Of a stretch of DNA of 64,000 nucleotides, positions 4,809 to 44,227 are shown piece by piece. Numbering within the stretch: the stretch's first letter is position 1; each line of letters starts with the position of its first letter. Source of the stretch: Spirochaetia bacterium (GTDB lineage: Bacteria > Spirochaetota > Spirochaetia > WRBN01); NCBI GenBank assembly GCA_965249825.1, contig CBDFMW010000002.1:98644-162643 (forward strand). The letters run 5' to 3'. Both the position numbers and the translations under genes were made by a program. The notes beneath the pieces are model-generated. The model worked only from the letters and a program-made list of their open reading frames with translations, ran no database searches and was not told the DNA's origin.

Positions 4809-5431
4809 GCCAAGCGGAGGGTACTGTTACACATTGATACGACGGTTTCGGGGCTTTCTTGCACCGGAATGCTGTCGTTTTGTTCTATAAAAAAGATCAA
4901 GGTGGCTTCATTGGCAGGGTTGCTGTCGCCTGAAAGGTCGACCAAACTTTGTACGCTGGTGATGAGCTGCTCATTCACCCAGACTGGTTCGCCGTCGGGG
5001 TAGTGCATCTTGGTAAACAGTTTTTGATCGGCATTGCATCGGGTCATCAGGCTTTCTTGGGCCTCTGGAATGATGAGAAAATGGCGTGTTTGCACAAAAA
5101 ATAACCCTGTGCAAGCTAAAATCTCATCGCTATCTTCCTTTAGTTCACGGCGTTTTTGTGCCACGGTGATGAGGGCAGGATTGACCAAGATCTCTTTGTG
5201 TTGTTTATCCATTAAGGTGATGAGGGGGGTGTTATGCTCAGCCATGAGTACCTGCAGCTCATCTAAACTTTGGGTTACCTCCAAGGTCATTTTTTCTTCA
5301 ATAAACGAAATAATACTGACCCGGGTGATGGTGTCATCCGCTGCCAAGTGGGGCTGGCTCTGCACCATGGTAACATGGGCGGGGTTAAAAAAAATAGGCT
5401 TGCCCGCTAGGGACACAAGAGGTAACAACAT
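4805..5431 (-). CDS. hypothetical protein, member of the recurrent (I/V/F)-x-(V/F)-N-P-x-h-I/V motif family
   Basis: 208 aa; four copies of the motif (IFFNPAHVTMV, ILVNPALITVA, VWVNEQLITSV, IFFIEQNDSIP) shared with ORFs 7635, 9509, 12210. Confidence 0.5.
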   Translation of the reverse strand: MLLPLVSLAGKPIFFNPAHVTMVQSQPHLAADDTITRVSIISFIEEKMTLEVTQSLDELQVLMAEHNTPLITLMDKQHKEILVNPALITVAQKRRELKEDSDEILACTGLFFVQTRHFLIIPEAQESLMTRCNADQKLFTKMHYPDGEPVWVNEQLITSVQSLVDLSGDSNPANEATLIFFIEQNDSIPVQESPETVVSMCNSTLRLA

Positions 5432-5512
5432 AGCGACTCCTTTTATGCCTACAGTGTAGCATACTCTTGCATATAGTAGCTAGCCCAGTCATACCGTCTT
5501 ATCAGTCTTTAG

Positions 5513-7582
5513 GTGAATTACCAAACAATACTTAAGGAAGAAGGTCAAAAGATGGGTAAAAAAGTGAATCTGTTTAACTACAGAGCCTCCAAGGCGGAAG
5601 GTAATAAGCATATTACAATTAATGAAAACTTGCTTACTAAAGAGTTTTTAGGATTGTTAAGGGTGATGAATAATCATGCTTTAATGGAGGCGTTGTGCGG
5701 GCATAATTTGTGCTGGGCTAATCATCATGAGCATGAATATGTTGTTGAGTATACAAATGTAGAGATTGATCAATCCAGACCAGATGGTATGATTGCCTTA
5801 AAACATGCTGATGGTACAACCGAGGTGCGGCTGTTTTTTGAAAACAAGGTGGATGCGCCATTACGGGCAGAGCAACTGAACCATTATTTAGACAGCCATG
5901 CCACACAGAAACATGATCGGCTATTGGTGGTTACTCCTCGTATTCATGATAAACAAATAGTGAAGGGCATGGGCGATGAGCGCCTTATTTTTCACACTTG
6001 GGATGACGTGGCTAAGCTTTTAAAAAAACATGGTAAAACGAATGCTACCGAAGAGCGATTGGTTACCCTCTTTTTGGAGGCGATGGAACATTTGGCTGGT
6101 TGCTCGGAACTTACCCCAGAAATTATTAATGATAGCAATTTTGTTCAAATGAACCAATTTATGACTAAGGTGCTGGATAATATAGATCTCTTGGCGTATG
6201 GCGTGAAACTCGCCGGACGTTTTGACAATTTCGGAGGCCTTTATTCTTATCTCTTTAGGGGCGATCGTTGCCATGACTCTTTTGCTAATCTAGGTGCTTA
6301 CTTTTACACCGATGATTTCGGCATTCCCTTAAAAACAGAAGGCGTGCCTGAATTTATGCTTATGTTCTCTATCCTCCCGAATCACCAAGAAAAGTTGATT
6401 GATGATAAGCTTAAAGCGATTGTTGACACGCTCGTGAAGAATGGTTTTGAGAGCAACCTAGACGGCGATGTCATCACTAATAAACGGCATATGCTCTGGT
6501 ATCGCCAGCCCATCACATCGTCCTTCACCGTTGATCAAGCGTTAGAGTTTACCAACACCGCCTTCGCTTTGTTAGCCCAAGCTGGGGCTTTTGCCCATCC
6601 TTACTTTAAATATCTGAAAACCGCCAAGTGGAATGGACTAGTCCATAGCTGGGCTAATCATATGAACGAACAGTATTTTTTAGGGCATGATGATGAGGCA
6701 CACCCTCTTGGGTCCAACACCTTTTTGGGTTACTACTTTACCCCTACCCCTGATAATGATTGTTTATGGTTTGGCGTACATCATGATGCGCAAGCGTGGG
6801 AGCTGCCCCTGCTAGAGGAAGGGCAGCCTGACCTGATGTTTATCTGGTGGCTGTATGATGAGACAATGAATAACGATCCATCGCTACAAGCTTTGGTGCA
6901 ACAACTCACCCAGCAAGGCTTTGAGTTATTGGTGTCGCCAGCACATGAAGGGTGGCACTATCTTGGTTATCGCAAAACTTTATTGGACGGCGACGATGAA
7001 GCTCAGCACGAGCAAGCGGTGGCTTTTACCCAAGAGATGTTTGCTAAAATGAACCAAGCTAAAACGTTTGACCATCCGTACTTTGCATGGATAAAAAATG
7101 CCAACTGGACAGCCCTAGCCGACAGCTGGGCGAACAAAATGGACTCATCGACCTTTGAACCACACCACAGCCCTTGCGAACGGTTAGGCGGTCCGATTAA
7201 TGGGTATAGTTATAACCACAATGATGAGCGTAGTCCGGGTGCTACGTTACAATGGTTTGGGGTGATTAACGACCCTGCAGCATGGGATTTAGAACCTTTA
7301 ACCACAGGGCAACCCGAGCTTATTTTTATTTGGTGGATTGATGAAGAAGTGATCAACAATCCCTTGTTCCAAGAGCTGTTGATCACCCTTAAGAAAAGTG
7401 GGTTTGATTTCGGGTATCACACAAACGAAGGCTGGTACTTCATCAGCTACCGCCAAACTTTGCAAGACGGCACGGACGACGCCCAGCTAGCCCAAGCGTG
7501 GGCGTTTACCGAAACTATGTTTAAAGTGATGGAAGAAGCCCAAGCTTTTGGTCATCCTTATTTTAAGCAGTTTAAAGAGTAA
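5513..7582 (+). CDS. hypothetical protein: N-terminal PD-(D/E)XK-like nuclease motif plus three tandem ~165-aa repeats each ending in HPYF
   Basis: 689 aa; RPDGMIAL...FFENKVD matches PD-x(n)-ExK; repeats ...AFAHPYFKYLKTAKWNGLVHSWANHM / TFDHPYFAWIKNANWTALADSWANKM / AFGHPYFKQFKE with conserved WFGV..D..AW.L.PL..GQP.L.FIWW. Confidence 0.55.
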   Translation: MNYQTILKEEGQKMGKKVNLFNYRASKAEGNKHITINENLLTKEFLGLLRVMNNHALMEALCGHNLCWANHHEHEYVVEYTNVEIDQSRPDGMIALKHADGTTEVRLFFENKVDAPLRAEQLNHYLDSHATQKHDRLLVVTPRIHDKQIVKGMGDERLIFHTWDDVAKLLKKHGKTNATEERLVTLFLEAMEHLAGCSELTPEIINDSNFVQMNQFMTKVLDNIDLLAYGVKLAGRFDNFGGLYSYLFRGDRCHDSFANLGAYFYTDDFGIPLKTEGVPEFMLMFSILPNHQEKLIDDKLKAIVDTLVKNGFESNLDGDVITNKRHMLWYRQPITSSFTVDQALEFTNTAFALLAQAGAFAHPYFKYLKTAKWNGLVHSWANHMNEQYFLGHDDEAHPLGSNTFLGYYFTPTPDNDCLWFGVHHDAQAWELPLLEEGQPDLMFIWWLYDETMNNDPSLQALVQQLTQQGFELLVSPAHEGWHYLGYRKTLLDGDDEAQHEQAVAFTQEMFAKMNQAKTFDHPYFAWIKNANWTALADSWANKMDSSTFEPHHSPCERLGGPINGYSYNHNDERSPGATLQWFGVINDPAAWDLEPLTTGQPELIFIWWIDEEVINNPLFQELLITLKKSGFDFGYHTNEGWYFISYRQTLQDGTDDAQLAQAWAFTETMFKVMEEAQAFGHPYFKQFKE

Positions 7583-7634
7583 CGACTCAATTTTTTATAG
7601 CCAAGGGGAGGGCAACCTCCCTTTGCCCCATGGG

Positions 7635-8876
7635 TTACAGTAAGCTATCCAACGGCTCGGTAATGTCTAGCGTGTCGTAAAATTTGCTAAACTGCAGCTG
7701 TGTGCCAATGGTGTCATTCGGTTCTATCAGCGTGGCGCGGGCAAGGCGAACATGGTTCAAGTTCACTAATATTTCATCGCCGGTAGGTGTATGAAACAGT
7801 TTAAAGTGATGGGCGGTGGTTAAAAAATAAAATTTTTCTAAGGGTTGGGTGCAGGGCATAAACAGGTTGTCATCGGCAAAGGTGATGAGTGTGCCATCAT
7901 CGTGGGTTTGGATACGGCTCACTTGGTGCAGATTGATAAACACCCGCAACTCAGGCGATGTGTGCTTCATGGGTATGAAAAAAGGCAAAGAGAACAACTG
8001 TTTTAAAGGCAGGTTTAACACATCAGTGTGCGTTTTTAACAGGTAGGTAACATGGCTACGCCACACCACACGGTCATCTTTAATAATGTGCCGTGTGCAG
8101 CTCACATAACTCATCAGTGAAGGGTTCACCACCACAGGTAACCCTTCATGGGTAAACCCGCTTAACAAATACGTTTGCTTTTTGCGCCATAGCCGGTGCA
8201 GCTTGGGCAATACTTCAGGCACTTTGTAAACTTCACCATTCACTAAGGAAAACACACTGTTTTTGTCAGCAGGCTTGCCAGAAGGCATAAGACTGGCGAC
8301 AAACTGGCTATTAAGTCCATAGCGGGAACCCTGCCCGTCAGGTAACCAGATAAAGGTCCGCCATGCTTTACTCCACAAAAAACGTAAGCGGGGTAAGGAA
8401 AGCGGATGAAACCAAAACTGTCCATCTAAGGAGTGAAGATGACTAAAGCGACGTTTGGTGGGCTGTTGTAAGCTGGGGCTAGCCCCACGCAGCAGTTGGT
8501 GAGTGGAGCTAGTGGCACGGCCCCGTTGCACAGCTAGCAACCGACTGATGTGTAAATAGTAGGGGTCGTCTTGGTGTAAAGGGGCAAAAAACTGTTTAGG
8601 TGAAAAGCGTTTTAGCATAGCCCATGAACGCACCATAGGAGCTATGTGTAAAATGTGCTGAATGGACTGGGCAATGAGCAATCGAGGCGTGAGCGAATCA
8701 GGCCAATCGCTCAAACTAAGCCAGCTTATAGAGTCAGCATCTTCGGCTGGTTTCAGCGTACGCATAGCCTCCATGAACGTCGGGTTCACTAAGATGACTT
8801 GTTTATGACTTTGGGTACGGGTGGTTTCAATCAAAGAAATAAACCGCACTTGTTCAGAGAAGGTTTTTTTTAGCAT
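7635..8876 (-). CDS. hypothetical repeat-motif family protein (413 aa)
   Basis: Motif copies VILVNPTFMEA, VVVNPSLMSYV, VFINLHQVSRI, ILVNLNHVRLARATLIEPNDTI; paralog of ORFs 9509 and 12210. Confidence 0.55.
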   Translation of the reverse strand: MLKKTFSEQVRFISLIETTRTQSHKQVILVNPTFMEAMRTLKPAEDADSISWLSLSDWPDSLTPRLLIAQSIQHILHIAPMVRSWAMLKRFSPKQFFAPLHQDDPYYLHISRLLAVQRGRATSSTHQLLRGASPSLQQPTKRRFSHLHSLDGQFWFHPLSLPRLRFLWSKAWRTFIWLPDGQGSRYGLNSQFVASLMPSGKPADKNSVFSLVNGEVYKVPEVLPKLHRLWRKKQTYLLSGFTHEGLPVVVNPSLMSYVSCTRHIIKDDRVVWRSHVTYLLKTHTDVLNLPLKQLFSLPFFIPMKHTSPELRVFINLHQVSRIQTHDDGTLITFADDNLFMPCTQPLEKFYFLTTAHHFKLFHTPTGDEILVNLNHVRLARATLIEPNDTIGTQLQFSKFYDTLDITEPLDSLL

Positions 8877-26728: not shown

Positions 26729-26766
26729 AATGGGTAAGTCTCCAGCAAGGTAGAGGGTGAAAAGAA

Positions 26767-26838
26767 GCCAAAACTGGGAATTGAACCCAGGACCTACTCG
26801 TTACGAGTGAGTTGCTCTACCGCTGAGCTATTTTGGCG
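26767..26838 (-). tRNA. tRNA-Thr (anticodon CGU)
   Basis: Cloverleaf on minus strand: acceptor GCCAAAA/UUUUGGC, T-loop GGTTCAATTCC, anticodon loop CU-CGU-AA; one A.C mismatch at 31-39. Confidence 0.75.
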
Positions 26839-27815
26839 TATAACCCCTTCACCATAAAATATAACGCTCTTTTTGTCAAGGGGAAAGGTTTTGGTTGACT
26901 AACGACTAAATGTTTTTTGATTTCATCATAGACTATAGCAGGAAGAGCGGTTTTAGTGAAAGCTTTATCTAGTTTCTTAGTTTCATTCTTTTGAGCCTTT
27001 TCTAATTTTTCAAAGGAGGATTGCAAGTAAGGTGATTTTTTACTTATTTTTTGCATAGCATCAAAAATCGATTGTAAAGATCTGGTGTTCTTCGCAAATC
27101 TTTCACCGTATATGCGTTGATTGTGAGCACAGTGATTTCTTAGTGTAGAGAATGCCCACAAATCCTTTTCGAGTTTTTTTATATCTTTGTTTAGGTGTTT
27201 TGTGTTTTTGGGTTGACCTAGAAGTACAACGATGTTTTCTTTTAAGTCCTGCGGTAAAATTTGGTAGAACTTACTGAGTTTGCCAAATGTAAGTTCATTA
27301 ACCAATATCCATATCGGAACATAACCATGATTTTTTGGATCGAGATAGTGGGTTATATAGGGGATTTTTGTTCTGCTATTTTTAATTATAGTCTGAAATT
27401 CTTTAATTACCTCTTTTGTTTCTTTATCTGTAGGATTAGGATAGTTCTTCGGGTCGCAAAAAAATGTGTCTTTATAGCTGTCGTGCGCATGATTCTTAAA
27501 GTAGTGAGCCACTTGATAGCCAATGATATTTTTAAGAAATGCTTCAATATATAGCAACTGGGTTAGGTAGAGTTTACGCAAAGCACCATCAAATTGATAG
27601 AGGGTATGGATTTGAAAGAGTGATGTTCCTGTATGATATTGGTTCGTACGAGTATCCGCTAGAAATGGTTTACCAAAGGAGTTAATGAGCGTGTAGTAGT
27701 TACATTGTTTTAAAATAGCTAAATCAAAGTTATAATTTTTGGGTATCCCTGATAGATTCCGTTTGTAAAGCTGTTTTAGTTGCTCTTCATGAGTTAACGG
27801 AGGTTTTTCTGCCAT
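26817..27815 (-). CDS. Abi_2 family (AbiD/AbiF-like) abortive-infection HEPN protein
   Basis: 332 aa; hallmark STLRNHCAHNQRIY (R-x4-H) and Abi_2 N-terminal helical region; 3' end overlaps tRNA-Thr 5' end. Confidence 0.8.
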   Translation of the reverse strand: MAEKPPLTHEEQLKQLYKRNLSGIPKNYNFDLAILKQCNYYTLINSFGKPFLADTRTNQYHTGTSLFQIHTLYQFDGALRKLYLTQLLYIEAFLKNIIGYQVAHYFKNHAHDSYKDTFFCDPKNYPNPTDKETKEVIKEFQTIIKNSRTKIPYITHYLDPKNHGYVPIWILVNELTFGKLSKFYQILPQDLKENIVVLLGQPKNTKHLNKDIKKLEKDLWAFSTLRNHCAHNQRIYGERFAKNTRSLQSIFDAMQKISKKSPYLQSSFEKLEKAQKNETKKLDKAFTKTALPAIVYDEIKKHLVVSQPKPFPLTKRALYFMVKGLYAKIAQR

Positions 27816-28362
27816 TTATATCAAACCTCCTTATCGAGACAAAAAAAACATCCCGATTTTCAAGAGGTTATCTTGAAGGATAAGGATGTCCCCACCAAAT
27901 TCATGGTGTCTCTTATCTTAAGTATAGCCTAAATAGGGCAGGGTGTCAAGCATGGATTCTGTAAGAATCTAATAAACTGGTTGTGAGGGGTGGAAGACAA
28001 GCTAGACGAAATAGTGTACACTCTTTATAATTTGAACGCTGAAGAACGAGCGGTGGTGAGTGGGGGGCGGAGCTGATGGGTGGGGAGTTGACAAGCGTGC
28101 TTAATTAGCGTATCATTAGGGTGGAAGGATTTTGGTTACTGCATGTTAAGTTTTATTCTTAATGAATAAGAGGGAGATGCGTTTTGAAATCCGGATTCTT
28201 TAATATATAATATTAAAATGACGGATTTTAGAATTAAGAACGAGGCTAAGTAATATTGGTCTTTAAGCAAGGTAGTTGAGAAACACTATTGGATTTACTG
28301 GGTTCAACACGGTAACAACAAAAAATCTCTATAAGACAAAGCCCGCCTTTTGTGGGCTGTTG

Positions 28363-29181
28363 TCATGTGTGCCTTAATCCATCATTTAAATAAATGTTCA
28401 CATGACTTGCCTTGATGCGTACTTTTTCCTGTGTTCTTCCATTGAAAAAATCGCTATCAATATTTCCATCACTTTCTATTTGCACATCATAGTGATGACC
28501 TGCACCGTAACGATACCCAAAGCGATAGTGACCACTTAAATAGTAATGAGCGGAATCGGTAGACTTGTTGTTTAAGTCCCCATGCTTGTGGTTACCATAA
28601 AAAAATAGGCGTTTCTTACGATCCTGATACCCTTCCTTTTTAGCTGAGTTTGCCTTGACAAATTTAAAAGGATTGGCTATCGTAGGATTTAACTCTTCTT
28701 TGCCGAGATACACAGCCTTTAGGTGTGCTTCAAAAGCAAAGCCATTTATTTTTTCGTCAAAATTTTTGATTGGCAATAAGTAAACGTGATTATTTCTTAG
28801 TTGCTTCGCTCGTATGTTGTACTCCACAGCTTTTGATATAGCCGTAGACCATAACTCCTCATTTCTATAGTGCTCACTAGATAGTGGTTCTATAGAGCGG
28901 ATAGAGGCAAAAGGAAAAAATAACTCTAACAAAACATCGCAATTCGCATCCTTGTGTTTTACATAGATAAGCTGAATAAACTTGTATGTATGTCTTTTAA
29001 CAAGAGGCAAGAGTAAGTCTTTAAAATACTTATTAATAGGTTCTACGGTGTATTTCGGACTAATTTCATTTACTGGCATAAAAGCAAAATCATGATTTGG
29101 ATGTTTTTTTTCTACTGCCTCAGGTAATTTAACACAGAGTGTTTTATTTAGCCCTGCTACAATAACTAACGTTTTAGCCAT
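28363..29181 (-). CDS. hypothetical protein (AT-rich islet, downstream gene of 2-gene module)
   Basis: 272-aa ORF, markedly lower GC than flanks, 3 bp after upstream ORF stop; hairpin terminator at ~28337-28360. Confidence 0.5.
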   Translation of the reverse strand: MAKTLVIVAGLNKTLCVKLPEAVEKKHPNHDFAFMPVNEISPKYTVEPINKYFKDLLLPLVKRHTYKFIQLIYVKHKDANCDVLLELFFPFASIRSIEPLSSEHYRNEELWSTAISKAVEYNIRAKQLRNNHVYLLPIKNFDEKINGFAFEAHLKAVYLGKEELNPTIANPFKFVKANSAKKEGYQDRKKRLFFYGNHKHGDLNNKSTDSAHYYLSGHYRFGYRYGAGHHYDVQIESDGNIDSDFFNGRTQEKVRIKASHVNIYLNDGLRHT

Positions 29182-29184
29182 TTG

Positions 29185-29640
29185 CTATTTATGCTCTCCC
29201 AGCAAACTCTCTATCAGCCATACTGGAAGTTGTTTATCCTTATGTTCACTGGGGATACGGTCAAGCACTTTTTGTAATAAAGAAACATCGTGAGCCTTTT
29301 TCTTTGTTTTGACAGAACTTGGCACACTCATTTGATTATCAGTGCCATTTAAAAGTTCGTCTATGCGTGTTTCGTCCTCGTCTTTGGCAACGGCAATAAC
29401 TAGAGGGTTACTGTTTGCATGAACAAGTTTTTTTAAAAATGTATGTTCTTTGATTTTATCTTTAAGCTTCTCTTCGCCTAAAAAATCATCTAGGGAATGT
29501 TTTCCATATTCAGAAATCAATCTATTTCCAAGCTCTGCCGCCAATAGAACTTTAATGGGTTTTCCATCTTTGTTGTATTTATCACTATTGTAAAGCTTTT
29601 CTGTAAACCTTCTGAACTTTTCGATATTTAACTCACTCAT
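29185..29640 (-). CDS. hypothetical protein (AT-rich islet, upstream gene of 2-gene module)
   Basis: 151-aa ORF, Lys/Glu-rich. Confidence 0.5.
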   Translation of the reverse strand: MSELNIEKFRRFTEKLYNSDKYNKDGKPIKVLLAAELGNRLISEYGKHSLDDFLGEEKLKDKIKEHTFLKKLVHANSNPLVIAVAKDEDETRIDELLNGTDNQMSVPSSVKTKKKAHDVSLLQKVLDRIPSEHKDKQLPVWLIESLLGEHK

Positions 29641-29963
29641 TTATCTTTATCCTTTTTATCTAAAATAATCCGATCTTACTTTATCATCATTAGGAGGTTA
29701 TGTCAAATCTTCATGAGATATATGGTATACTATAAGATATATAATACACTTAATAACCAAGGATATAAGAACATGACACTTTTAAAATGGCTATTGAAAC
29801 CATTCCGTAAAGAAGAGATGCCGGCTGAACTCTGCGATATTTCAGCAAGCTTAACTGCTTTTGCCGAGGCTCATCCTGAGGTTTTAAAACGTTCTAAGGA
29901 GATTGGCGAACGGTGGATGAGAGAAAGTCAGAAAAGCTAGACTTACGGTAGGAGAGGGCGAAC

Positions 29964-30404
29964 ATGACATACAAAGCCATTATTTGGTTAGAGAGCAACG
30001 GGACCTACAGCGTGATGTTCCCAGATTTTCCCAACTGCTTTAGCATGGGTGATAACCTAGCCGAAGCACGGCACTATGCCCATGAAGCACTCGATTTGCA
30101 TTTAGAAGACAACCCTGTCAAGGGTTTTGCTCGTCCATCGCTCACGGTGAATAAAGACGCATTAGGGGTAGCCTCCGAGTATAGCGAAGTGTGTGATATC
30201 AAAGTGAGCAAGAACAAGGCGTTTGCTCTTAAATTGCGTTGGTTACGCCAAGATTTAGGGCTAACGCAAAAGACCCTAGCCGAGTTGTTGCATATCGGTT
30301 TATATGCCTATCAACGCCTAGAAAACCCTCGATTAAGCAACCCTACCATGAAAACAATCGAACAACTAGAAGCGGTGATTCACCAAGAGTTGGTTACTGT
30401 TTAA
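29964..30404 (+). CDS. HicB-family antitoxin-like protein with C-terminal XRE-type HTH
   Basis: N-terminal YSVMFPDFPNCFSMGDNLAEARHYAHEAL (HicB/UPF0150 fold); C-terminal LRWLRQDLGLTQKTLAELL HTH. Confidence 0.65.
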   Translation: MTYKAIIWLESNGTYSVMFPDFPNCFSMGDNLAEARHYAHEALDLHLEDNPVKGFARPSLTVNKDALGVASEYSEVCDIKVSKNKAFALKLRWLRQDLGLTQKTLAELLHIGLYAYQRLENPRLSNPTMKTIEQLEAVIHQELVTV

Positions 30405-32714: not shown

Positions 32715-32747
32715 GAAAAACCCTGCTAGCAAAGGCAGGGTTTTTTA
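32715..32747. terminator. bidirectional rho-independent terminator (also left copy of 30-bp direct repeat)
   Basis: agaaaaaccctgc-tagcaaag-gcagggtttttt. Confidence 0.75.
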
Positions 32748-33593
32748 ATACCGTTGCATGAACTTGTTGTTATCTACACGAGCACCGCTAAGTAAATCGT
32801 ACAATGGATTGTCTAGCACGCTACCAACTGTGGTCTGTCTTTCGTTAGCGTTTGAGACCAAGAAACCAAAAGGATCGATAATGACATAGGATGACTCTAA
32901 ATCATCCTGTTTTTCGATGACCAGTCGGCATGATGCATCCACCCCTTGGCAATAAAGAGTAAATTCATCATCACTAAGAGCTAAATCGCTAGCATCGGCG
33001 TTGCAATTTGCTTGAATGCGTACTTGCAAAATCTTGATACGATCAAACGCAACATCTCTTTACATCTGGTTAATATTTTTGTGTTTATTGCTCTGGCTTA
33101 CCACGGTGTTCACTTTAAGTTTAAACCTTTTTTCTTTAGCATACTGCAACACCTCCACAAGATTCTTGTAATCTAATGTCTGTCCGTTCCTACAACTCCT
33201 ACCGATGATAACATTGGTTTGGTTATCAAGACTATCAATACTAATTCCTATCATATCCACTTTATCTTGCCAGTTATCAATCACCTGCTTTGATAGCAAT
33301 GTGGCGTTGGTAATGACAGATACCGCTATTTTTTTGCCCACAATATAGGTAATCAGCTCGTTTAAGAAGGGTACAAGCATAGGCTCACCCCCCGCAACAT
33401 TTATACGCCCGTCCACAATACCGCACTGCCTAAAATAGTGTTCAATGGCATCCCCCACACATCTCCACTCTTCTAGCTCTAGCTCACCGTTCTCGGGCAA
33501 ACTATCTGAGGCATCAAAACGGGCAAAACAGTGTTTACAACTGTAGTTACATCTCTGCGTGATGTGTAAGTTAATGACATTAAACCCATTCAT
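32745..33593 (-). pseudogene. prokaryotic viperin-like (pVip) radical-SAM enzyme interrupted by a single in-frame TAA at 33060-33062
   Basis: CNYSCKHC radical-SAM motif; viperin-specific blocks INVAGGEPML, ISIDSLDNQTNVIIGR, FKLKVNTVV, then after the stop ...SCRLVIEKQDD..SYVIIDPFGFL aligning to the viperin C-terminal domain. ORFs 33060..33593 and 32745..33029 are in the same frame. Confidence 0.65.
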
Positions 33594-33595
33594 CT

Positions 33596-34831
33596 TTAAA
33601 ACACCCCCAAACTTTTCATTAATGAAAACAACGCCAACCCTATAGAAGCTACCGATGTCGCTGTGAGAACCACGATGACTTTTTGTAGCTTTTTCGTAGT
33701 GGTCGCAAAGGTTTGCTCCATCGCCTCCACTCGCTTCATGTCTTCAATCGCTGTGGCATTAAGGGCGGTAAACCCTTGCATTTCATCGGCTACTTTGCTC
33801 ACTTCCGCCTCCAGTTTGGCGGTAAGGGCTTGGTGTTTCTCCTGCACTTCATCTTTAAAACTGGCGACTGTTTTGTTGGTGGTCTCAAGCTTGGCGGTAA
33901 GGGCTTGGTGTTTCTCCTGCACTTCGTCTTTAAAACTGGCGACTGTTTTGTCGGTGGTCTCAAGCTTGGCGGTAAGAGCTTGATGTTGCTCTTGCACATC
34001 ATCTTTAAAACTAGCGACAGTTTTGTTGGTGGTCTCAAGCTTGGCGGTAAGGGCTTGGTTTTGCTCTTGCACTTCGTCTTTAACAGTAGCGACGGTTTTG
34101 TTGGTGGTCTCAAGCTTGGCGGTAAGGGCTTGATGTTGCTCCTGTACTTCATCTTTAAAACTAGCCACGGTTTTGGTTATATCGGACTGAAGGGCTTGAC
34201 GATGGTGTAACACCTCGTCTTGAACGTTGTCTAAAGTTCTACTAAGCTGGTCTATTGCTTCCGAATTACCGCTACTACACCGATCCAACTCGACTATTTT
34301 AGCATCAGTTTGACTATGTTTTTCAGCATTCCGAGAGCCACGCTCATTAACATCTCGGTATATGGTTTCAAGGTATTGTTGTGTCTCCTCGGTTATATTC
34401 GTATCACCTGAACGTATTAATTTAATAACAACATCTTCTTGTTTCTTGCGAGTATCTTCAGAGTTACTATGTTCATCGCCTAGGCTTATAAGCCTACCGT
34501 CCACATAATCAAAGCAATACAGAAAAAACTTGATTGATTCTTGAACCAATTCTACGATTTGCAAGTCTGCTTTAGCTGATGCAATCAAACCTTCAGCTAA
34601 CAACTCATCACGCGCCTTACTTTTACCCCATCCCACATTGTATACTTCGTGCGCTTTAATTCCTTGTTCACTGATCGTTTTTTTGGTTTGATCAATACCT
34701 TTCATTAGCCCTTTTAGGTGTTTTTCCTCATCATTAGAGTTGGTGAGTCTGCTCAAGCGGCGCTCAGCAAAACGATCTTTATTAGACAGTACTCCTAACC
34801 ATTCATTATCATTATTTTCCATTTCACTCAC
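33596..34831 (-). CDS. C-terminally membrane-anchored coiled-coil protein with five 25-aa tandem repeats
   Basis: 411 aa; repeats KTVASFKDEVQEQHQALTAKLETTN; C-terminal TM VIVVLTATSVASIGLALFSLM; strong RBS AAGGAGTGAG. Confidence 0.6.
   Translation of the reverse strand: MSEMENNDNEWLGVLSNKDRFAERRLSRLTNSNDEEKHLKGLMKGIDQTKKTISEQGIKAHEVYNVGWGKSKARDELLAEGLIASAKADLQIVELVQESIKFFLYCFDYVDGRLISLGDEHSNSEDTRKKQEDVVIKLIRSGDTNITEETQQYLETIYRDVNERGSRNAEKHSQTDAKIVELDRCSSGNSEAIDQLSRTLDNVQDEVLHHRQALQSDITKTVASFKDEVQEQHQALTAKLETTNKTVATVKDEVQEQNQALTAKLETTNKTVASFKDDVQEQHQALTAKLETTDKTVASFKDEVQEKHQALTAKLETTNKTVASFKDEVQEKHQALTAKLEAEVSKVADEMQGFTALNATAIEDMKRVEAMEQTFATTTKKLQKVIVVLTATSVASIGLALFSLMKSLGVF
33790..34200. repeat. 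75-bp coding tandem repeat array (~5.5 copies)
   Basis: ggcggtaag(g/a)gcttg recurs at 33818, 33893, 33968, 34043, 34118 (period 75). Confidence 0.9.
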
Positions 34832-34865: not shown

Positions 34866-36562
34866 TTAGTACAAACTGTTTTCTGGAGACTGCATCATCT
34901 TTTTAAATTCCGCCTCACGCTCTGCCCTGCTAACTGCTACCGAATGTTGTACGTCCTCTATATGATCATTAAACTGTTGCTTGAACTCTGCGGATCTTTG
35001 TTCTACCTCCGCAGATCGTTGCTTCGACTCCGCCATTCGTTGATCAACATAAGCATAGCCTTCAGCAATGTTATGATAGGTCTGCATCATGGCATACTGC
35101 GGTAATTTACCAGATAAAGAGACAAGTTGAAATTTAATCTCTAAGTCTTTGTTTCGGTTATGAAACTTATCCATATAGTACAAAACAATGGTGGTTACCA
35201 ACCCACCTACAAGACTAGACAGCACCACGGCAATCGCATCGCTCACAGTTCTCTCACCAAAAAGGGGGAACAACATTAAAGGCTGAAGACCGGGGATTGC
35301 CAATAATAACTTCTCAATAGCCTCTGCCAACGCCAGCGAAAGCACACCAATTAACCCTGCGATTAATACTTTTACGGCTTGGTAACGCACCTCTTCCTTA
35401 GGCATTCCAGCCGGTGGGTTAGCCAATATTTTCATGGCTTGCACCAAAGAGACAAAGCCAGCTCGAATCATCTTAACAAATCTCTTTAAGGTGGTGGCAA
35501 ACATGTTGATAACAAACACCACCATGTTAGACAAAAAGGCGGTGATAGCCTGCCCAATGCCGTCTTTAAACAGATCTTTAAACTTGTTTTTTATGTTCTC
35601 AAACGCTTGATTTAAGGATGTTTTGAATCGGGCAACCACCTCTTTCAAGTTTTCATTGCCTTTGTTCTTAAATGTGGCGCGAACCTCTCTAAACACCGCC
35701 TGCACCACCTCTATCAAGGCTGGCGCCAGCATGGCGTATGCCCCCACATACATAGCATCTTTGGCTCCGGTAGACAACAGCTCTTTACCTTGCTTGTTAA
35801 AGAGGGCTTTATCTCCCTCCTTCTTTACATGTTTTTTGGCTTTGTCGTACTCTGCGGTAACCAGTTTCATGTCTAAATCATAGAACTCGGCATTGGTTTT
35901 TCCCGTTTTGCCATGGGGCTTGTTTGCCCACACCAACAGATCCTGATTACCCTTGGACTGGTTGGCACTGGAGCTAATGTAGGTGAGATTGACGGAATCG
36001 GTGGTAACTTTTGCCCGTTGCTCCGCTGTCATCCCCAAGTTCAGCTTAGGGTTTCGCTCAATTTCGGCAGCTGAGATGACATGGTCTAGGTGAGTTGAGA
36101 CATCTTTGTTTAACACCTTGCCAGTGTAACCATCTTTAATAGTCTCATTTTGCTGAAAGTCTTCTTTGCGTTGTTTATTAAAAGATTTACCATCCACTTT
36201 ATCGTAATCACTGCCTTATCGTAATCGCTGTTTTTTCTGTCATAATGATTCGTTTCCATGTATTTCATGTGGTCTTCATTACTCGCGGTTACGCCCTGTT
36301 CAAAGTTATGCACGGTGGTAACGTTACCACCATCAATGTTGGTCAACATCAGCGATGCTAGCCCAAACTGTCCCTTAATGGTGTCTAACACCACCTCTTG
36401 GCACAGCACCAGCAAAGATTTCGTCTCATTCGTCGACAATTGCGACTGCAACCTATCCATTTCAGCCAGCGTTGCTTCCAGCTCGGCATCAACCTCAATT
36501 GTAAACCCCTCTGTGGAGTCACTTAATCCTTCCAGCAGCCCTTCATCCGTTTCAAACCCCAT
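34866..36562 (-). pseudogene. HNH-nuclease-domain protein with C-terminal 4-TM region, split by frameshift from a 17-bp tandem duplication
   Basis: ORFs 36110..36562 and 34866..36197 both encode SDYDK in different frames across the duplicated ttatcgtaatc(a/g)ctg (36199-36213 and 36216-36230); HNH-like block LDHVISAAE...NLTYISSSANQSKGN. Confidence 0.5.
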
Positions 36563-37098: not shown

Positions 37099-38644
<1,546 letters not shown>

Positions 38645-38799: not shown

Positions 38800-41676
38800 A
38801 TGAGAGAGGATAGTATGGATAAAAATGTAGGGCTATCGACTGAAGAGATTTTGAATAGCAGGCAAACGAATGGATCTAATCTTTTAACGCCAGCCAAAAA
38901 CCCATCATGGCTGTGGCTTTTTTATCAAAAATTTGATGATCCCATTATTCGTATTTTACTCATTGCTGCCTTCATATCTATAGGCGTTGGCTTTTTCGAT
39001 GGTCACTTTATGGAAGGCATAACAATCATTATTGCGATTTTGATGGCAACTGGGGTGGCTTTTGTCAATGATTTGGGGGCTCAACGTCAGTTTGATGCCC
39101 TCACACTAATCGCAAGTGATGTTCTGTATCGGGTTTTACGCAATGGGGTTCATACCGAGATTTCAAAAAGTGAAATTGTTGTAGGTGATATTCTTTTTTT
39201 AGAGCGCGGAGCTGAGATTCCTGCTGATGGTGTTATTTTAGAGGTGCAAGCAGCTCTTGTGAATGAGGTCGCCCTTACTGGTGAATCTCAAGCCGTAGTT
39301 AAATCAATAGAAGAGCTACTAACTAAAAAAACAGCTTTGTCCTCAAATAAGGTCTTTCGAGGGACACACATTGAAGAGGGATCGCTTTCTATGCGCGTAG
39401 AAAAAGTAGGGGATCAAACATACATTGGGCAGTTAGCTACGCTCACGATGCAGGACAGCGAAGTAGAAACCCCACTCAATAGGCAACTAACGGGGCTGGC
39501 CAAGGCGATGAGCGTTATTGGTTTTTCGAGTGCAGGTCTTATTTTTGGCTTGCTAATTGCTCGTGATATTAGAGAAGGCTTTATTATTTTCCCTTCTCAC
39601 GCCCAATGGTCGGCATGGCTGGTGTTTTTTTTAGGCTTGGTCGTGTTTGCCCCAGTATGGTTAGCTATTTTAGCCGATCTTCTTGAACTCATTTCTCCTT
39701 TATCTACTTCAAAATACCAATTTTTTCGGATAACAAGTTTTAAAAGAGGGTTTTTTCTTGTTATCCTTATGGTCACTCTCGTCGTATTTTCGATTTTCTA
39801 TGTTGCCTTTATAGATAGTTTAACCCTAATTGAAGCGGTACAATACTTAAAAAGGGGCGTTGTGGATGCTTTTAAGGGGAGTAATGGCCTTCAGCTTTTA
39901 GAGCATTTTATGGTGGCGATGACTATTTTGGTGATGGCTGTACCGGAGGGTTTACCCCTCAGTGTAACTTTGGCACTCTCCTACAGTGTTAAATCTATGC
40001 TGCGTGGAGGTACTTTAATTCGCCACATGCATGCTGCGGAAACATTAGGGGCCGTTACAACTATATGTACTGATAAAACAGGCACACTTACGCAGAGCAT
40101 AATGAGCATGAATCACGCCAGTCTTACTGCTAGCGATGAAATGGGCTGGGTGTGCTTGGCTGTTAATAGTACGGCAGATTTGAGTCATGATATGGGAATT
40201 ATCGGTAATCCAACTGAAGGAGCTATCCTTGTGTATATTAATAAACACTTGGGCTTAGATTATGATGAGCTGCGTCGCCGTGCCACTAACATTAAGCAAG
40301 AACCCTTTAACTCTGATCGTAAATATATGGCATCATCTTTTAGGGTTGATGGGCTTGACATTGTTACCATTAAAGGTGCCCCTGAAGTGGTATTAGCTCG
40401 TACTACTGTCACCGATGAAGTGAAAGAGTGTTTACTTGCCGAAATAAAGCAGTTTCAGGCTAAAGGTATGCGTGTGCTAGGTATCGCTTATAGAGATACA
40501 ACTAATGAGGCTGGAACTGTGTTGCGTAACATGAGCAATTTACTATGGAAAGGATTTATTGTATTGAGTGATCCCTTAAGAAGTGAGGTTCCTAGCACAA
40601 TAAAAGTCTGTCACAAAGCAGGAATTGATATTAAAATGGTTACAGGAGATAATCTAGATATTGCAGTCGAGATAGCAAGACAGGCCCATATTTTACCGCA
40701 TGACTTCACTTTTGATATTGATACGCGCGCAAGAGTGAAGGAAGGATCGGTATTGACAGGAGTAGAGTTTGCCGGATTATCTGACGCTGAAATCTTGATT
40801 TTATTAGAAGAAGGTAAGCCACATGTTGTCGCACGATCGACACCACAAGATAAAATGCGTTTGGTTACGCTTCTTCAAACTTCCGGTGAAGTAGTGGCGG
40901 TTACGGGTGATGGTACAAATGACGGCCCTGCGCTTAATCATGCTGATGTTGGTGTGGCGATGGGACTCACAGGCACGGCTATTGCAAAAGAAGCAGCTGA
41001 CATTATCATAACTGATGACAGTTTTGTAAGTTTGCAACATGGCATTTTGGGTGGACGTAGTTTATATTCAAATTTACAACGTTTCATTTTATTTTTACTT
41101 ACCATAGGAATAGTTGCACTGCTTTTGGTGGTTATAACCAGCTTTTTGGGGTGGTTTTTACCCTTAACGGTGATTCAAATTTTATGGATTAACATAATGA
41201 TGGACAGTTTTGCCGCACTGGCCCTATCTACTGAGGCAGTTGATCCTCATGTGATGGATAACCCCCCAAGAAACAGTAGTACGTTCATTATTACACCACA
41301 GATGGCGATTGAAATGGGTCTAATGAGTGCAGTTATACTGGCTCTTGCCTTGTTTTTTATGCAGAAATATGGCAGTCAACCATCGCTTCTTCAATTGACC
41401 TTATTTTTTAATATTTTTTCTTTTAGCCAGATTTGGAATTTAATTAACGTACGTTATTTTAATCGAAACATAGGGGATATGAAAGAATTTCTAAAAAACC
41501 CTATGTTTACAATCATTTTAATTATAATAATTACTGGGCAATGGATGATAACCCAGTGGGGCGGGTTGACCTTACGAACCACCCCGCTAAACCTTGAGCA
41601 GTGGTTTTTTGTGATTGGCATCACATCCCCAATTTTTATCATTCGAACTCTAATTCGAGTGGTTTTTAAGCGTTAA
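38800..41676 (+). CDS. P-type (P2, Ca2+/cation-transporting) ATPase
   Basis: DKTGTLT phosphorylation motif, TGES, VAVTGDGTNDGPAL, 8-10 TM segments; true start possibly Met at 38815. Confidence 0.9.
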   Translation: MREDSMDKNVGLSTEEILNSRQTNGSNLLTPAKNPSWLWLFYQKFDDPIIRILLIAAFISIGVGFFDGHFMEGITIIIAILMATGVAFVNDLGAQRQFDALTLIASDVLYRVLRNGVHTEISKSEIVVGDILFLERGAEIPADGVILEVQAALVNEVALTGESQAVVKSIEELLTKKTALSSNKVFRGTHIEEGSLSMRVEKVGDQTYIGQLATLTMQDSEVETPLNRQLTGLAKAMSVIGFSSAGLIFGLLIARDIREGFIIFPSHAQWSAWLVFFLGLVVFAPVWLAILADLLELISPLSTSKYQFFRITSFKRGFFLVILMVTLVVFSIFYVAFIDSLTLIEAVQYLKRGVVDAFKGSNGLQLLEHFMVAMTILVMAVPEGLPLSVTLALSYSVKSMLRGGTLIRHMHAAETLGAVTTICTDKTGTLTQSIMSMNHASLTASDEMGWVCLAVNSTADLSHDMGIIGNPTEGAILVYINKHLGLDYDELRRRATNIKQEPFNSDRKYMASSFRVDGLDIVTIKGAPEVVLARTTVTDEVKECLLAEIKQFQAKGMRVLGIAYRDTTNEAGTVLRNMSNLLWKGFIVLSDPLRSEVPSTIKVCHKAGIDIKMVTGDNLDIAVEIARQAHILPHDFTFDIDTRARVKEGSVLTGVEFAGLSDAEILILLEEGKPHVVARSTPQDKMRLVTLLQTSGEVVAVTGDGTNDGPALNHADVGVAMGLTGTAIAKEAADIIITDDSFVSLQHGILGGRSLYSNLQRFILFLLTIGIVALLLVVITSFLGWFLPLTVIQILWINIMMDSFAALALSTEAVDPHVMDNPPRNSSTFIITPQMAIEMGLMSAVILALALFFMQKYGSQPSLLQLTLFFNIFSFSQIWNLINVRYFNRNIGDMKEFLKNPMFTIILIIIITGQWMITQWGGLTLRTTPLNLEQWFFVIGITSPIFIIRTLIRVVFKR

Positions 41677-42470
41677 GAGAGTTCGTATGACACCCTTTGA
41701 ATGCTAAGAGCTTTTCCCGTTAGTGGATCACTCGTAATAAGCACACCCCATATTGTGGGTGTGCCGTTGGCCGGTTCACCACGAACGGGTACTTGAGTCA
41801 GCACTCGTTTTATAGAGATAGCCTTGTCGCCACCAATCACGCCATCCATAGCTCCTGTCATTCCTAAATCGCCCACAAAGGCTAAGCCTCCAGCGATGAT
41901 ACGCTCATCCATAGTAGGAACATGCGTGTGTGTTCCCACCAGTGCGGTGGCTTTGCCAGCTATATGGTATGCGACCGCCTCTTTTTCCATAATATCCTCT
42001 CCATGAAAGTCAATAAAAATGAGATGATATTGGTCGTTGTGTAGTTTATTTAAAGCTGAAGAGAGACTTTTGAACGGACAATCAATCGCGTGTCCCATAC
42101 GAACCCGACCCTGTGCATTAATAACCGCTACTTTGTGATTATTAATAATTAGCGTGGTGATACCCTTGCCAGGGGCGGCACCTGGGTAGTTTAATGGTCG
42201 TAAAAGGTAAGGCGATGAATCAAGGTATGGTAAAATTTCAGGGCGTTGCCAAATATGATTACCTGAAGTAAGAACATGGATGCCCAACCCTAAAAACTCA
42301 TCAGCCAGAGCTGGTGTAATACCAAAACCTTCGTCAGCATTTTCCCCATTGGCAATAATCAAGTCAGGCTGATAATGACTGATAAGATCTGCTAATCCAT
42401 AAAACATGGCTCGCCTGCCAGCTTTACCAATAATATCCCCTAGCATCAGTGTTGAAAAAGGTTGCATCAT
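41673..42470 (-). CDS. ymdB: YmdB-like metallophosphoesterase (2',3'-cyclic-nucleotide phosphodiesterase, TIGR00282)
   Basis: LMLGDIIGKAGR, ANGENA, HGED metallophosphoesterase motifs; immediately downstream of rny. Confidence 0.8.
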   Translation of the reverse strand: MMQPFSTLMLGDIIGKAGRRAMFYGLADLISHYQPDLIIANGENADEGFGITPALADEFLGLGIHVLTSGNHIWQRPEILPYLDSSPYLLRPLNYPGAAPGKGITTLIINNHKVAVINAQGRVRMGHAIDCPFKSLSSALNKLHNDQYHLIFIDFHGEDIMEKEAVAYHIAGKATALVGTHTHVPTMDERIIAGGLAFVGDLGMTGAMDGVIGGDKAISIKRVLTQVPVRGEPANGTPTIWGVLITSDPLTGKALSIQRVSYELS

Positions 42471-42566
42471 AATCTCCTTTTGTATAGAGTAAAAAAATCC
42501 GCTAGCTCATTATGGAGATAGCGGATTTATAAAGTTTCAAAATAAGTTATAGCTTATTTTCCTGTT

Positions 42567-44096
42567 CTATCGCGCATACTCAACAACACGGGTTTCTCTC
42601 ACGAGGGTAACCCTAATGCGTCCTGGGTATTTCAGCTCATTCTCAATTTGTGAGGCAATTTCTTTCCCTAAAATTTGCATATTGATATCATCTACTTCAT
42701 CATGATTAACAAGAATACGCAACTCTCTACCGGCCTGCACCGCAAAGGCACGTTCAACGCCTGGTTTGCTACTGGCAATCTTTTCCAATCCCTCAAGGCG
42801 CTTAATGTAGGAGTCCAACGTCTCGCGACGGGCACCTGGACGAGATGCCGAAATGGCATCGGCGATCTGAATGATGACAGCTTCAGGAGTGGCAGGTTCA
42901 ACGTCGTTATGATGTGCCAAAATGGCATGAACAACACTTTCTTTCTCTCCTAATTTTTTCATCAGCTCAGCACCCACTTCTGCATGATTCCCATCACCAT
43001 CTGAGTCAATTCCTTTACCTACATCGTGAAATAGCGCAGCGCGCTTACATATTTCACGATTAGCTCCAATTTCAGCAGCAATCATACCGGCAATCTTGGC
43101 TACTTCTTTGCTGTGGCTTAACACATTTTGCCCATAGCTAGAACGGAAATGCAAACGCCCCAAGGCACGGATGCTTTCATGGCTCAGATTGGTAATACCC
43201 ACTTCGAAGGCAGCTTTATCACCCTCTTCATAAATTTGCTGGCTAAATTCTTTTGTAACCTTTTGCACCACTTCTTCAATGCGAGTAGGGTGAATTCGCC
43301 CATCGGCGACCAGCCGCTCAATGGTTTCTTTGGCAATCGCTTTACGAACAGGGTCGTAGGAACTAATGATGAGGACTTCAGGAGTGTCATCAATGATAAT
43401 ATCCACACCAGTCAGGGTTTCGAGCGTGCGAATGTTACGCCCCTCCCTGCCAATAATACGCCCTTTCATTTCATCATTGGGTAATGTAACAGCAGTTACA
43501 GTGATGTCAGAAGAGACCTCGGCTGTAAGCCTCTGAATAGAACTAACAAGAATATCCCTTGCCCGTTTTTCTGATGTTTCTTTGGTTTCTTGTTCGATTT
43601 TGGAAACGATTGCACGAGCTTCGCGACGTGCCTCCGTCTCTAGACTAAGGATGAGAGTTTGTTTAGCCTCATCACTCGATAATTGAGCCACATGCTCTAG
43701 CTCATTACGACGTTCTTGTAAGAGTAACTCCGCCTGCTTTTCCTTATCTTCTAGTTCTTTATCTCGTACTATGAAAGACTGAAGTTTTTTATCCACCTGT
43801 TGATTTTTTTTATCAAGGTTCTCTTCTTTCGAGAGAAGATGCCCCTCCAGGCGTTGAAGTTCACTGCGACGATCGCGATCACTTCTTTCTTGTGCTTTTC
43901 TTTCACGTGCTATTTGCTCTTTGGCTTCAATTAACAGCTCTTTACGTTGTGTTTCTGCTTCACGCAGTAACGACTCGGTGTTATTTTTAGCTGTGTGTTC
44001 AAAGCTTGAAAGTTGATAGCGAGCATACATCCATCGAAAAATCCAACCCATCAGAAAAGTGGTAAGGGCTATAACAATTTGTAAAATGATAGCCAT
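42567..44096 (-). CDS. rny: ribonuclease Y
   Basis: N-terminal TM, coiled coil, KH domain GREGRNIRTLETLTGVDIIID, HD domain HAILAHH. Confidence 0.9.
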   Translation of the reverse strand: MAIILQIVIALTTFLMGWIFRWMYARYQLSSFEHTAKNNTESLLREAETQRKELLIEAKEQIARERKAQERSDRDRRSELQRLEGHLLSKEENLDKKNQQVDKKLQSFIVRDKELEDKEKQAELLLQERRNELEHVAQLSSDEAKQTLILSLETEARREARAIVSKIEQETKETSEKRARDILVSSIQRLTAEVSSDITVTAVTLPNDEMKGRIIGREGRNIRTLETLTGVDIIIDDTPEVLIISSYDPVRKAIAKETIERLVADGRIHPTRIEEVVQKVTKEFSQQIYEEGDKAAFEVGITNLSHESIRALGRLHFRSSYGQNVLSHSKEVAKIAGMIAAEIGANREICKRAALFHDVGKGIDSDGDGNHAEVGAELMKKLGEKESVVHAILAHHNDVEPATPEAVIIQIADAISASRPGARRETLDSYIKRLEGLEKIASSKPGVERAFAVQAGRELRILVNHDEVDDINMQILGKEIASQIENELKYPGRIRVTLVRETRVVEYAR

Positions 44097-44227
44097 ACTA
44101 ACCCCTTTATTCCTAAAATTTTGATTAAAATAATAGATTTCATCATATAATATACTTTTTTGCTTGTCAAGGAGCTATGGTCTTATTTTCCTGATAATAA
44201 ATTTTCAAATGCGGTTTCTTAAAATAG

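Follow-up and report, generated by a model that had tools for sequence, protein, structure and literature searches.

A 17-nucleotide tandem duplication splits the gene of a putative membrane-held HNH nuclease in a spirochaete

Two overlapping open reading frames (ORFs) on the minus strand of a 64,000-nt stretch of DNA from a Spirochaetia bacterium (assembly GCA_965249825.1, contig CBDFMW010000002.1, positions 98,644–162,643), which we refer to as the window, are separated by a short sequence present in two adjoining copies. The locus raises the question of whether these ORFs are two genes or one gene divided by the repeat and, in the latter case, whether the gene has been lost or can be switched on and off. 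We find that the ORFs are the two parts of a single ancestral gene, whose restored product belongs to a large family with an HNH-type motif and a conserved operon partner, and that the gene has probably been lost by ordinary decay.

A tandem duplication within one gene

On the minus (coding) strand, the sequence CAGCGATTACGATAAGG (copy 1, 36230..36214) is followed without a gap by CAGTGATTACGATAAAG (copy 2, 36213..36197). The copies are identical at 15 of 17 positions, share an uninterrupted 11-nt core, GATTACGATAA, and stand in the coding-strand context ...GACAGAAAAAA CAGCGATTACGATAAGG CAGTGATTACGATAAAG TGGATGGTAAA.... A duplication at this site had been reported in an earlier note on this DNA; it is present, in a register two bases to the left of that first drawn (36199–36215 and 36216–36232), which gives only 14 matches out of 17. 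The whole window was scanned for adjacent repeats with a period of 12–30 and at most two mismatches, and 100 first-order Markov shuffles served as the null. The 17-nt duplication is the only adjacent repeat in the window with a period above 12, and since no repeat with a period of 17 or more arose in any of the shuffles, we take it to be real, not a product of chance. The two differences between the copies, AGC/AGT and AAG/AAA, are both third-position transitions that are synonymous in the restored gene.

The 5′ ORF (36110..36562, 150 residues) encodes the acidic amino-terminal region recognised earlier together with conserved C54, QFGLA and DGGxVTTxHNF motifs, the last spanning residues 77–87 (36302–36334) and reading DGGNVTTVHNF in the window protein. 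Copy 1 is read in this frame as ..N-S-D-Y-D-K; past it, the ORF is out of frame and ends at a TAA codon (36110–36112). In copy 2, it is the frame of the 3′ ORF (34866..36197, 443 residues from a GTG at 36197) that yields S-D-Y-D-K; to this ORF belong the HNH core, the hydrophobic helices and, at the C-terminus, a long helix. In the public annotation, this fragment has 416 residues and starts at 36116. Both minus-strand ORFs, and the coding of SDYDK once in the frame of each, are as the note had described them. Deletion of either copy fuses the ORFs, as the note had also foreseen, into one ORF of 559 codons and not about 565, and in the best register the two possible products are identical. The whole disrupted gene occupies 34866..36562 on the minus strand and, minus one copy, encodes a PDC-M40B-like protein. 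A promoter scan of the minus strand upstream of 36562 gave nothing convincing. Another small tandem duplication, this one in frame, is found in the part of the gene that encodes the C-terminal tail, where a 21-nt repeat (34976–35033, minus strand) is present in 2.8 copies with 71% matches (..ESKQRSAEVEQRSAEFKQQ..).

With the restored 559-residue protein as query, a search of 5.8 billion proteins returned 321 homologues. Among the matches listed, these are typically 540–610 residues long, are 42–51% identical to the query and cover 84–99% of it; the only close match among them is the 416-residue piece annotated in the same genome. Moreover, in 79 of 80 related loci drawn from species-representative genomes, the match runs across the junction in one reading frame. 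In the nearest homologue, the motif occurs once (..NYDKVGDKSF.., ..YDRKSSNYDKVGDKSF..), and the homologue's sequence at the junction, ..NDYDRKSSNYDKVGDKSFPKKRKEDFQ.., aligns with ..NHYDRKNSDYDKVDGKSFNKQRKEDFQ.. of the restored protein; a doubled SDYDK motif occurs in none of the aligned homologues. We take the single motif to be the ancestral state because the nearest homologue carries one copy, and the duplication to be a frameshifting insertion because intact homologues, the closest with a single motif, span the junction in one frame. Neither among the homologues nor in the 80 loci were there unrelated proteins ending or starting at the junction, as two independent genes would predict. The two ORFs are one ancestral gene, split by the 17-nt duplication; the division of an HNH-domain membrane protein gene proposed earlier is borne out by these full-length, single-ORF homologues.

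The sole exception among the 80 loci is in a metagenome-assembled genome (MAG) of a Helicobacter species (SUG209; locus L028:291-2043), where the match is split over two frames into pieces of 251 and 334 residues. The break lies near residues 200–213, a site different from that in the window, and as this is a MAG contig an assembly error is possible. Near-identity DNA searches with the gene against plasmids and Escherichia coli genomes gave no match, and the nuclease gene was not found in a scan of metagenome contigs for close relatives.

The nuclease family and its partner

The restored protein matches the PADLOC profile PDC-M40B (model PDLC04630) almost end to end, with an E-value of 2.7e-71 and a score of 239 bits over residues 35–466 and profile positions 1–445 of 547. 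This match was computed on the restored sequence, the gene as it stands being frameshifted. Counted as representatives at 50% clustering, the family has 1,102 members at E ≤ 1e-3 and 416 at E ≤ 1e-30, from spirochaetes, Campylobacterota, Proteobacteria, Firmicutes, Verrucomicrobia and other groups. No Pfam or NCBIfam model matches the restored protein significantly, and searches of the literature on PDC-M40 and on HNH defence proteins with transmembrane segments yielded no description of the family and no mention of PDC-M40. The fusion of a nuclease to a membrane domain is nevertheless less unusual than had been supposed, given some 1,100 representatives, the existence of PDC-M40B as a PADLOC candidate and the earlier characterisation of SNIPE (PMC13190303).

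Residue conservation was assessed in 81 sequences, the window protein included. The invariant residues include C54, G67, G78-G79, T82-T83, N86, D154, H155, E161, E163, R177, N186, N195, S197 and K198. Among these is a D-H...N...N-x-S-K-G pattern that is characteristic of HNH nucleases and that we take to resemble the motif of the Cas9 HNH domain. The predicted HNH/His-Me finger core spans residues 120–250 (35796..36188, minus strand), and the residues of catalytic type are encoded at 36084–36086 (D154), 36081–36083 (H155), 35988–35990 (N186) and 35961–35963 (N195). Twelve of the 81 sequences match the Pfam family GmrSD_C (best E-value 8e-4) and two match HNH_4, in each case below the gathering threshold.

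A full-length AlphaFold2 model is confident at residues 81–250, where block means are mostly 86–97 (75–79 at residues 101–120), and is of lower confidence elsewhere. A model of the domain alone has a predicted local distance difference test score of 92.6 and a predicted template modelling score of 0.85. The modelled protein has the beta-beta-alpha-metal fold of the HNH/His-Me finger superfamily, together with the catalytic histidine, the preceding aspartate and the metal-binding or structural asparagines (D154, H155, N186 and N195). With the domain model as query, nearly all of 27 Foldseek matches are of HNH type, among them Cas9 HNH domains, Vvn and the GmrSD enzyme BrxU; the full-length model returned helical noise only, and a profile search against PDB sequences returned only designed helical proteins. 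The assignment is therefore well supported by motif and predicted fold, and the HNH-like core claimed for the protein stands to that extent; in the profile search, no Pfam HNH-type model lies above its threshold. The predicted fold and the motif are shared with Cas9-HNH, GmrSD_C (DUF1524) and Vvn endonuclease I, with no membership of a curated family. The present family adds an N-terminal element (C54, QFGLA and DGGxVTTxHNF) and an integral-membrane region, both absent from those families. In the model, residues 77–116 pack with residues 120–250, so that the N-terminal domain and the HNH core are predicted to form one compact module. Since DGGNVTTVHNF belongs to this module, the frameshift after residue 116 would cut through a domain.

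The membrane segments were assigned from family-averaged hydropathy and the charge of their flanks. The membrane region covers residues 330–459 of the restored protein (35169..35558, minus strand), with lysine- and arginine-rich stretches on both sides. Three hydrophobic helices are clear across the family, at residues 330–353, 388–411 and 437–459, the first and last nearly free of charge, and a proline-rich hydrophobic segment is found at residues 412–431. Of the four C-terminal transmembrane (TM) helices counted earlier, the first, at about residues 264–287, is not retained, this segment being hydrophobic in the window protein and charged in its homologues; three clear helices and the proline-rich segment are what we can define. 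Through these helices the nuclease is predicted to be anchored in the membrane. About ten lysine and arginine residues precede the first helix and about 4.6 follow the last, the restored protein has no signal peptide, and the full-length model has a long C-terminal helix at residues 467–552. Because both flanks are basic and a signal peptide is absent, we infer that the nuclease and the C-terminal helix both face the cytoplasm, an orientation that would require an even number of membrane passes.

Immediately downstream is a partner gene that had not been recognised before (33596..34831, minus strand), starting 35 nt past the stop codon of the nuclease gene. In its product of 411 residues, a motif region at the N-terminus (GWGKSKARDELLAEGLIASAKADLQIVELVQESIKF) is followed by a long coiled coil and, at the C-terminus, by a TM anchor. 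In all of the 22 close loci of the nuclease gene that we surveyed, a partner gene lies on the same strand 0–30 nt downstream and encodes 187–384 residues, and the partner thus appears obligate. Common to these partners are an N-terminal domain, ..GFFGKTGKKADATAxALVxTNEAxxEMNxLIQESIKFTC.., and a C-terminal TM anchor, as well as a coiled coil that differs greatly in length and is often built of repeats. BLASTP did not link the window partner to the others, and a profile of the N-terminal domain, built from twenty other partners, was needed; the window partner matches it with 21.8 bits, zero bias and a conditional E-value of 9e-9. The window partner agrees with the others in position and tail anchor, and of the N-terminal domain it carries the first half. 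Its coiled coil is built by an in-frame 75-nt tandem repeat (33809..34175, minus strand) of 4.9 copies with 90% matches, which encodes units of 25 residues (..TAKLETTNKTVASFKDEVQEQHQAL..). Across genomes the partner ranges from 187 to 411 residues, and the variation lies mainly in this repeat region. As the partner gene directly follows the nuclease gene in every close relative inspected, we consider that the two form a module.

PADLOC describes PDC-M40 as a three-gene system, which is not reproduced here. The partners are recognised neither as M40A nor as M40C and represent a conserved tail-anchored protein for which PADLOC has no model. The M40C profile matches the window partner weakly (E-value 0.015), from the motif region into the coiled coil, and matches none of 20 partner homologues at E ≤ 1. 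No M40A was found among the window neighbours that were scanned, nor in the 25 most frequent families among the 149 neighbours of the 22 close loci. Assignment of the partner as ZorA or JetC was rejected, the PADLOC matches being confined to the coiled coil and attributable to its composition. The partner does resemble ZorA of the Zorya system in having a membrane anchor and a long repeat-built coiled coil; the weak ZorA matches (best E-value 1.7e-6) are made by the window protein only and are probably compositional, and there is no MotA/ExbB-like channel domain and no ZorB, ZorC or ZorD at the window locus.

A distant clade of the nuclease, in Halomonas, Pseudomonas and Allochromatium, is 24–31% identical, with 24–25% identity at the loci L069, L072, L077 and L078 (at about 4700–8700). 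L069, the only one of these that was scanned, matches PDC-M40B with an E-value of 4e-33. The four loci are without the tail-anchored partner and have instead a PDC-M09A-like protein of 366–395 residues upstream; a protein of about 90–100 residues follows downstream in three of them, and a WYL regulator lies near L077. This suggests that the nuclease module has been combined with different partners in different clades.

In its intact form, the 559-residue protein would consist of a cytoplasmic N-terminal and HNH module tethered by three or four hydrophobic helices and followed by the long C-terminal helix. The intact module would act against phages or mobile elements, its nuclease kept at the membrane, away from the chromosome, and cutting DNA at or near the membrane. 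A precedent for such an arrangement is SNIPE (PD-lambda-1), a membrane-bound nuclease that cuts phage DNA during injection and is toxic once off the membrane (PMC13190303). SNIPE is a single protein with one N-terminal TM segment, DUF4041 and a C-terminal GIY-YIG nuclease, and its anchoring and cytoplasmic orientation have been demonstrated experimentally (PMC13190303); here they are predicted from sequence. The two share the design concept of a nuclease held at the membrane, and intact members of the family may likewise act as nucleases sequestered at the membrane. However, the window protein differs from SNIPE in having an N-terminal HNH domain, several mid-protein hydrophobic helices and an obligate-looking partner gene, and neither DUF4041 nor GIY-YIG matches it or any of the 81 family members, so that the defining features of SNIPE are absent. 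The likeness is one of analogy, with no homology implied, and on these grounds SNIPE may be regarded as the closest functional analogue.

A further possibility, which we put forward tentatively, is that the intact two-gene module constitutes a new form of membrane-located, DNA-targeting immunity, in which an HNH nuclease with a private N-terminal domain works with a tail-anchored coiled-coil partner that has a stalk of variable length made of repeats. The role of this partner would then be to sense phage DNA entry sites or to position the nuclease at them, and self would be told from non-self by location, as in SNIPE, with unrelated parts. If this is so, the broken copy in the window records a lineage discarding the module. 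If the module is a defence system at all, it would be a second, independently evolved membrane-held nuclease; the first, SNIPE, was shown experimentally only in 2026. For the family, this work provides a confident domain model of HNH type, defines the catalytic motif and adds a partner gene not recognised before. With about 1,100 representatives and neither a Pfam domain nor a published characterisation, the family is a reasonable target for study.

How the gene was lost

We consider it probable that the gene is a recent pseudogene, produced by the 17-nt duplication as a small cluster of defence genes underwent ordinary decay, and that it does not represent one state of a switch. In the simplest account, slippage would have duplicated the 17-nt stretch in tandem inside a single coding gene; the frame would shift after codon 116, leaving an N-terminal fragment of 150 residues and a C-terminal fragment of 416–443 residues, and the gene would be dead. 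The remaining 1.68 kb contains no other stop codon or frameshift and the catalytic motif is intact, for which reason the loss appears to be recent. An inactivating mutation, one of the two interpretations offered earlier, fits well with a frameshift in a family that is otherwise in one frame.

A second broken gene lies directly downstream of the partner, two genes from the nuclease gene. This is a radical SAM gene of the pVip type (32745..33593, minus strand) interrupted by an in-frame TAA codon at 33060–33062. The first 177 codons, before the TAA, match the NCBIfam model viperin_w_prok with an E-value of 6e-48, and the 94 codons that follow it in the same frame match the C-terminus of pVip. 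The pVip gene is a second inactivated defence gene of the same gene string, and function would have been lost in both under relaxed or negative selection.

Several observations weigh against this account of a recently decayed nuclease defence gene. The allele is known from a single assembled record, a contig of 1,629,651 bp. The copies differ at 2 of 17 positions, a divergence at which neutral drift predicts about 100 substitutions and several stop codons elsewhere, and none are seen. Among 102 highly conserved columns, there are 15 at which the window protein does not have the consensus residue, more than in any other sequence, although three other members depart at 12–13, and the departures may reflect divergence and not decay. 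As regards function, GmrSD_C scores 15.2 bits with the restored protein against a cutoff of 23, below the gathering threshold; the Foldseek E-values of the domain model are all at least 0.14, each match being weak alone; near the gene, the component M40A was not found and M40C is matched only weakly, so that the locus falls outside the PADLOC system definition; and the literature search gave no experimental test of any family member.

The divergence of the copies in an otherwise undamaged gene means that a recent simple duplication needs an added assumption, such as two diverged alleles. A different history with the same outcome is accordingly the strongest of the alternatives, though we think it distinctly less likely than the simple one. 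In one version, an in-frame duplication of 18 nt (six residues) was retained and later suffered a 1-nt deletion; one A inserted between the copies does restore an 18-nt period, with 16 of 18 positions matching. In the other, two diverged alleles were joined out of register by staggered illegitimate recombination, for instance after DNA uptake. Such a history would explain diverged copies beside an undecayed gene and, if selection had filtered both copies, the differences between them should be synonymous transitions, as both are. Only 6 of the 51 possible single substitutions are synonymous, and two of two would be so by chance in about 1–12% of cases, depending on the transition bias. With two substitutions only, however, the argument is statistically weak and suggestive at most; more events are called for than a duplication and two substitutions, and neither a doubled SDYDK in a homologue nor a second allele was found.

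The reversible switch raised in the earlier note, in which a costly nuclease would be turned on and off as slipped-strand events add or remove the 17-nt unit, is improbable. In its favour, phase variation is frequent among defence genes, slippage between adjoining copies with a perfect core of 11 nt could mechanistically remove exactly one unit, the same protein results whichever copy is lost, and the rest of the gene is intact. Contingency loci, however, consist of homopolymers or of short repeats in many copies, with far higher rates of slippage, and the locus has no such hypermutable tract, only two imperfect copies of its unit. Nor is there any sign of a conserved switch, 79 of the 80 loci being in one frame, the Helicobacter locus being broken elsewhere and the closest homologue having a single copy. 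The loss of the adjacent pVip gene by a plain nonsense codon likewise points to decay and not to regulation.

More doubtful still is the idea that the frameshift is bypassed or that the fragments, made separately, come together as an active enzyme. Each fragment corresponds to a long, uninterrupted ORF, and a −1 shift between the frame-1 TAA in copy 1 and the stop of the 5′ ORF would give a protein of 565 residues (..SDYDKGSDYDKVDG..) with a six-residue insertion in a poorly conserved loop. But the only useful position lacks a slippery heptamer, no Shine–Dalgarno-like sequence lies at a usable distance from the GTG at 36197 or that at 36116, the break cuts one confidently modelled domain, and no homologue is organised as two fragments at this site. 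A −1 shift at the nearby A_AAA_AAC was considered and rejected, as the shifted frame stops after five codons. Assembly and base-calling errors are typically homopolymer indels or exact duplications. Least likely of all is a sequencing or assembly artefact concealing an intact single-copy gene, which would suit a genome known from one record and the presence of the other split homologue in a MAG, but is at odds with a 17-nt copy bearing two synonymous transitions, with the separate calling of the two pieces from this same sequence in the public annotation and with the independent lesion in pVip.

On the favoured reading, then, the duplication is an ordinary gene-inactivating mutation, and its practical value is the correction of an annotation, in which two 'hypothetical proteins' become one frameshifted gene.

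Genomic setting and host

The neighbours of nuclease homologues in other genomes include WYL regulators, type II and III methyltransferases and other restriction–modification genes, mad genes, PDC-S01 and NsnA; the setting of the nuclease gene is typical of defence islands. In the window, the gene is divergent from a complete 16S rRNA gene (37100–38639, plus strand) that lies upstream of it across a 537-nt spacer, and the start of which we presume to be spirochaete-like. A P-type cation ATPase gene (38800–41676) follows the 16S gene in place of a 23S gene. As no part of the window matches 23S or 5S rRNA, the rRNA genes appear not to be linked.

Identity between the RNase Y of the host and that of Entomospira culicis is 73%; with the RNase Y of a metagenome contig from JGI (3300061587, Ga0501142_003334) it reaches 94%. 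This contig, the closest relative of the host that was found, is syntenic with the window at 38800–44100 (cation ATPase, YmdB and RNase Y) and ends just before the expected position of the 16S gene and the defence genes. The sizes and GC contents of named Entomospira genomes are similar to those of the host (PMC11636382). We conclude that the host, whose chromosome measures about 1.63 Mb, is an Entomospira-like spirochaete. When GTDB species representatives were scanned for the nuclease gene, none of the loci recovered came from an Entomospira genome or from any other relative of the host; the named species thus appear to be without the gene, which is therefore probably accessory.

Beyond pVip lie genes for SPFH and ThyX proteins and a HicB-like antitoxin with a helix-turn-helix domain (29964–30404), which has no obvious HicA beside it. 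These are followed by two genes without a family match (28363–29181 and 29185–29640) in a stretch of low GC content (0.365) and by an Abi_2/AbiD gene (26817–27815) that abuts a tRNA gene (26766–26837). The genes at 26766–30404 are possibly further defence or toxin–antitoxin cargo at this tRNA site.

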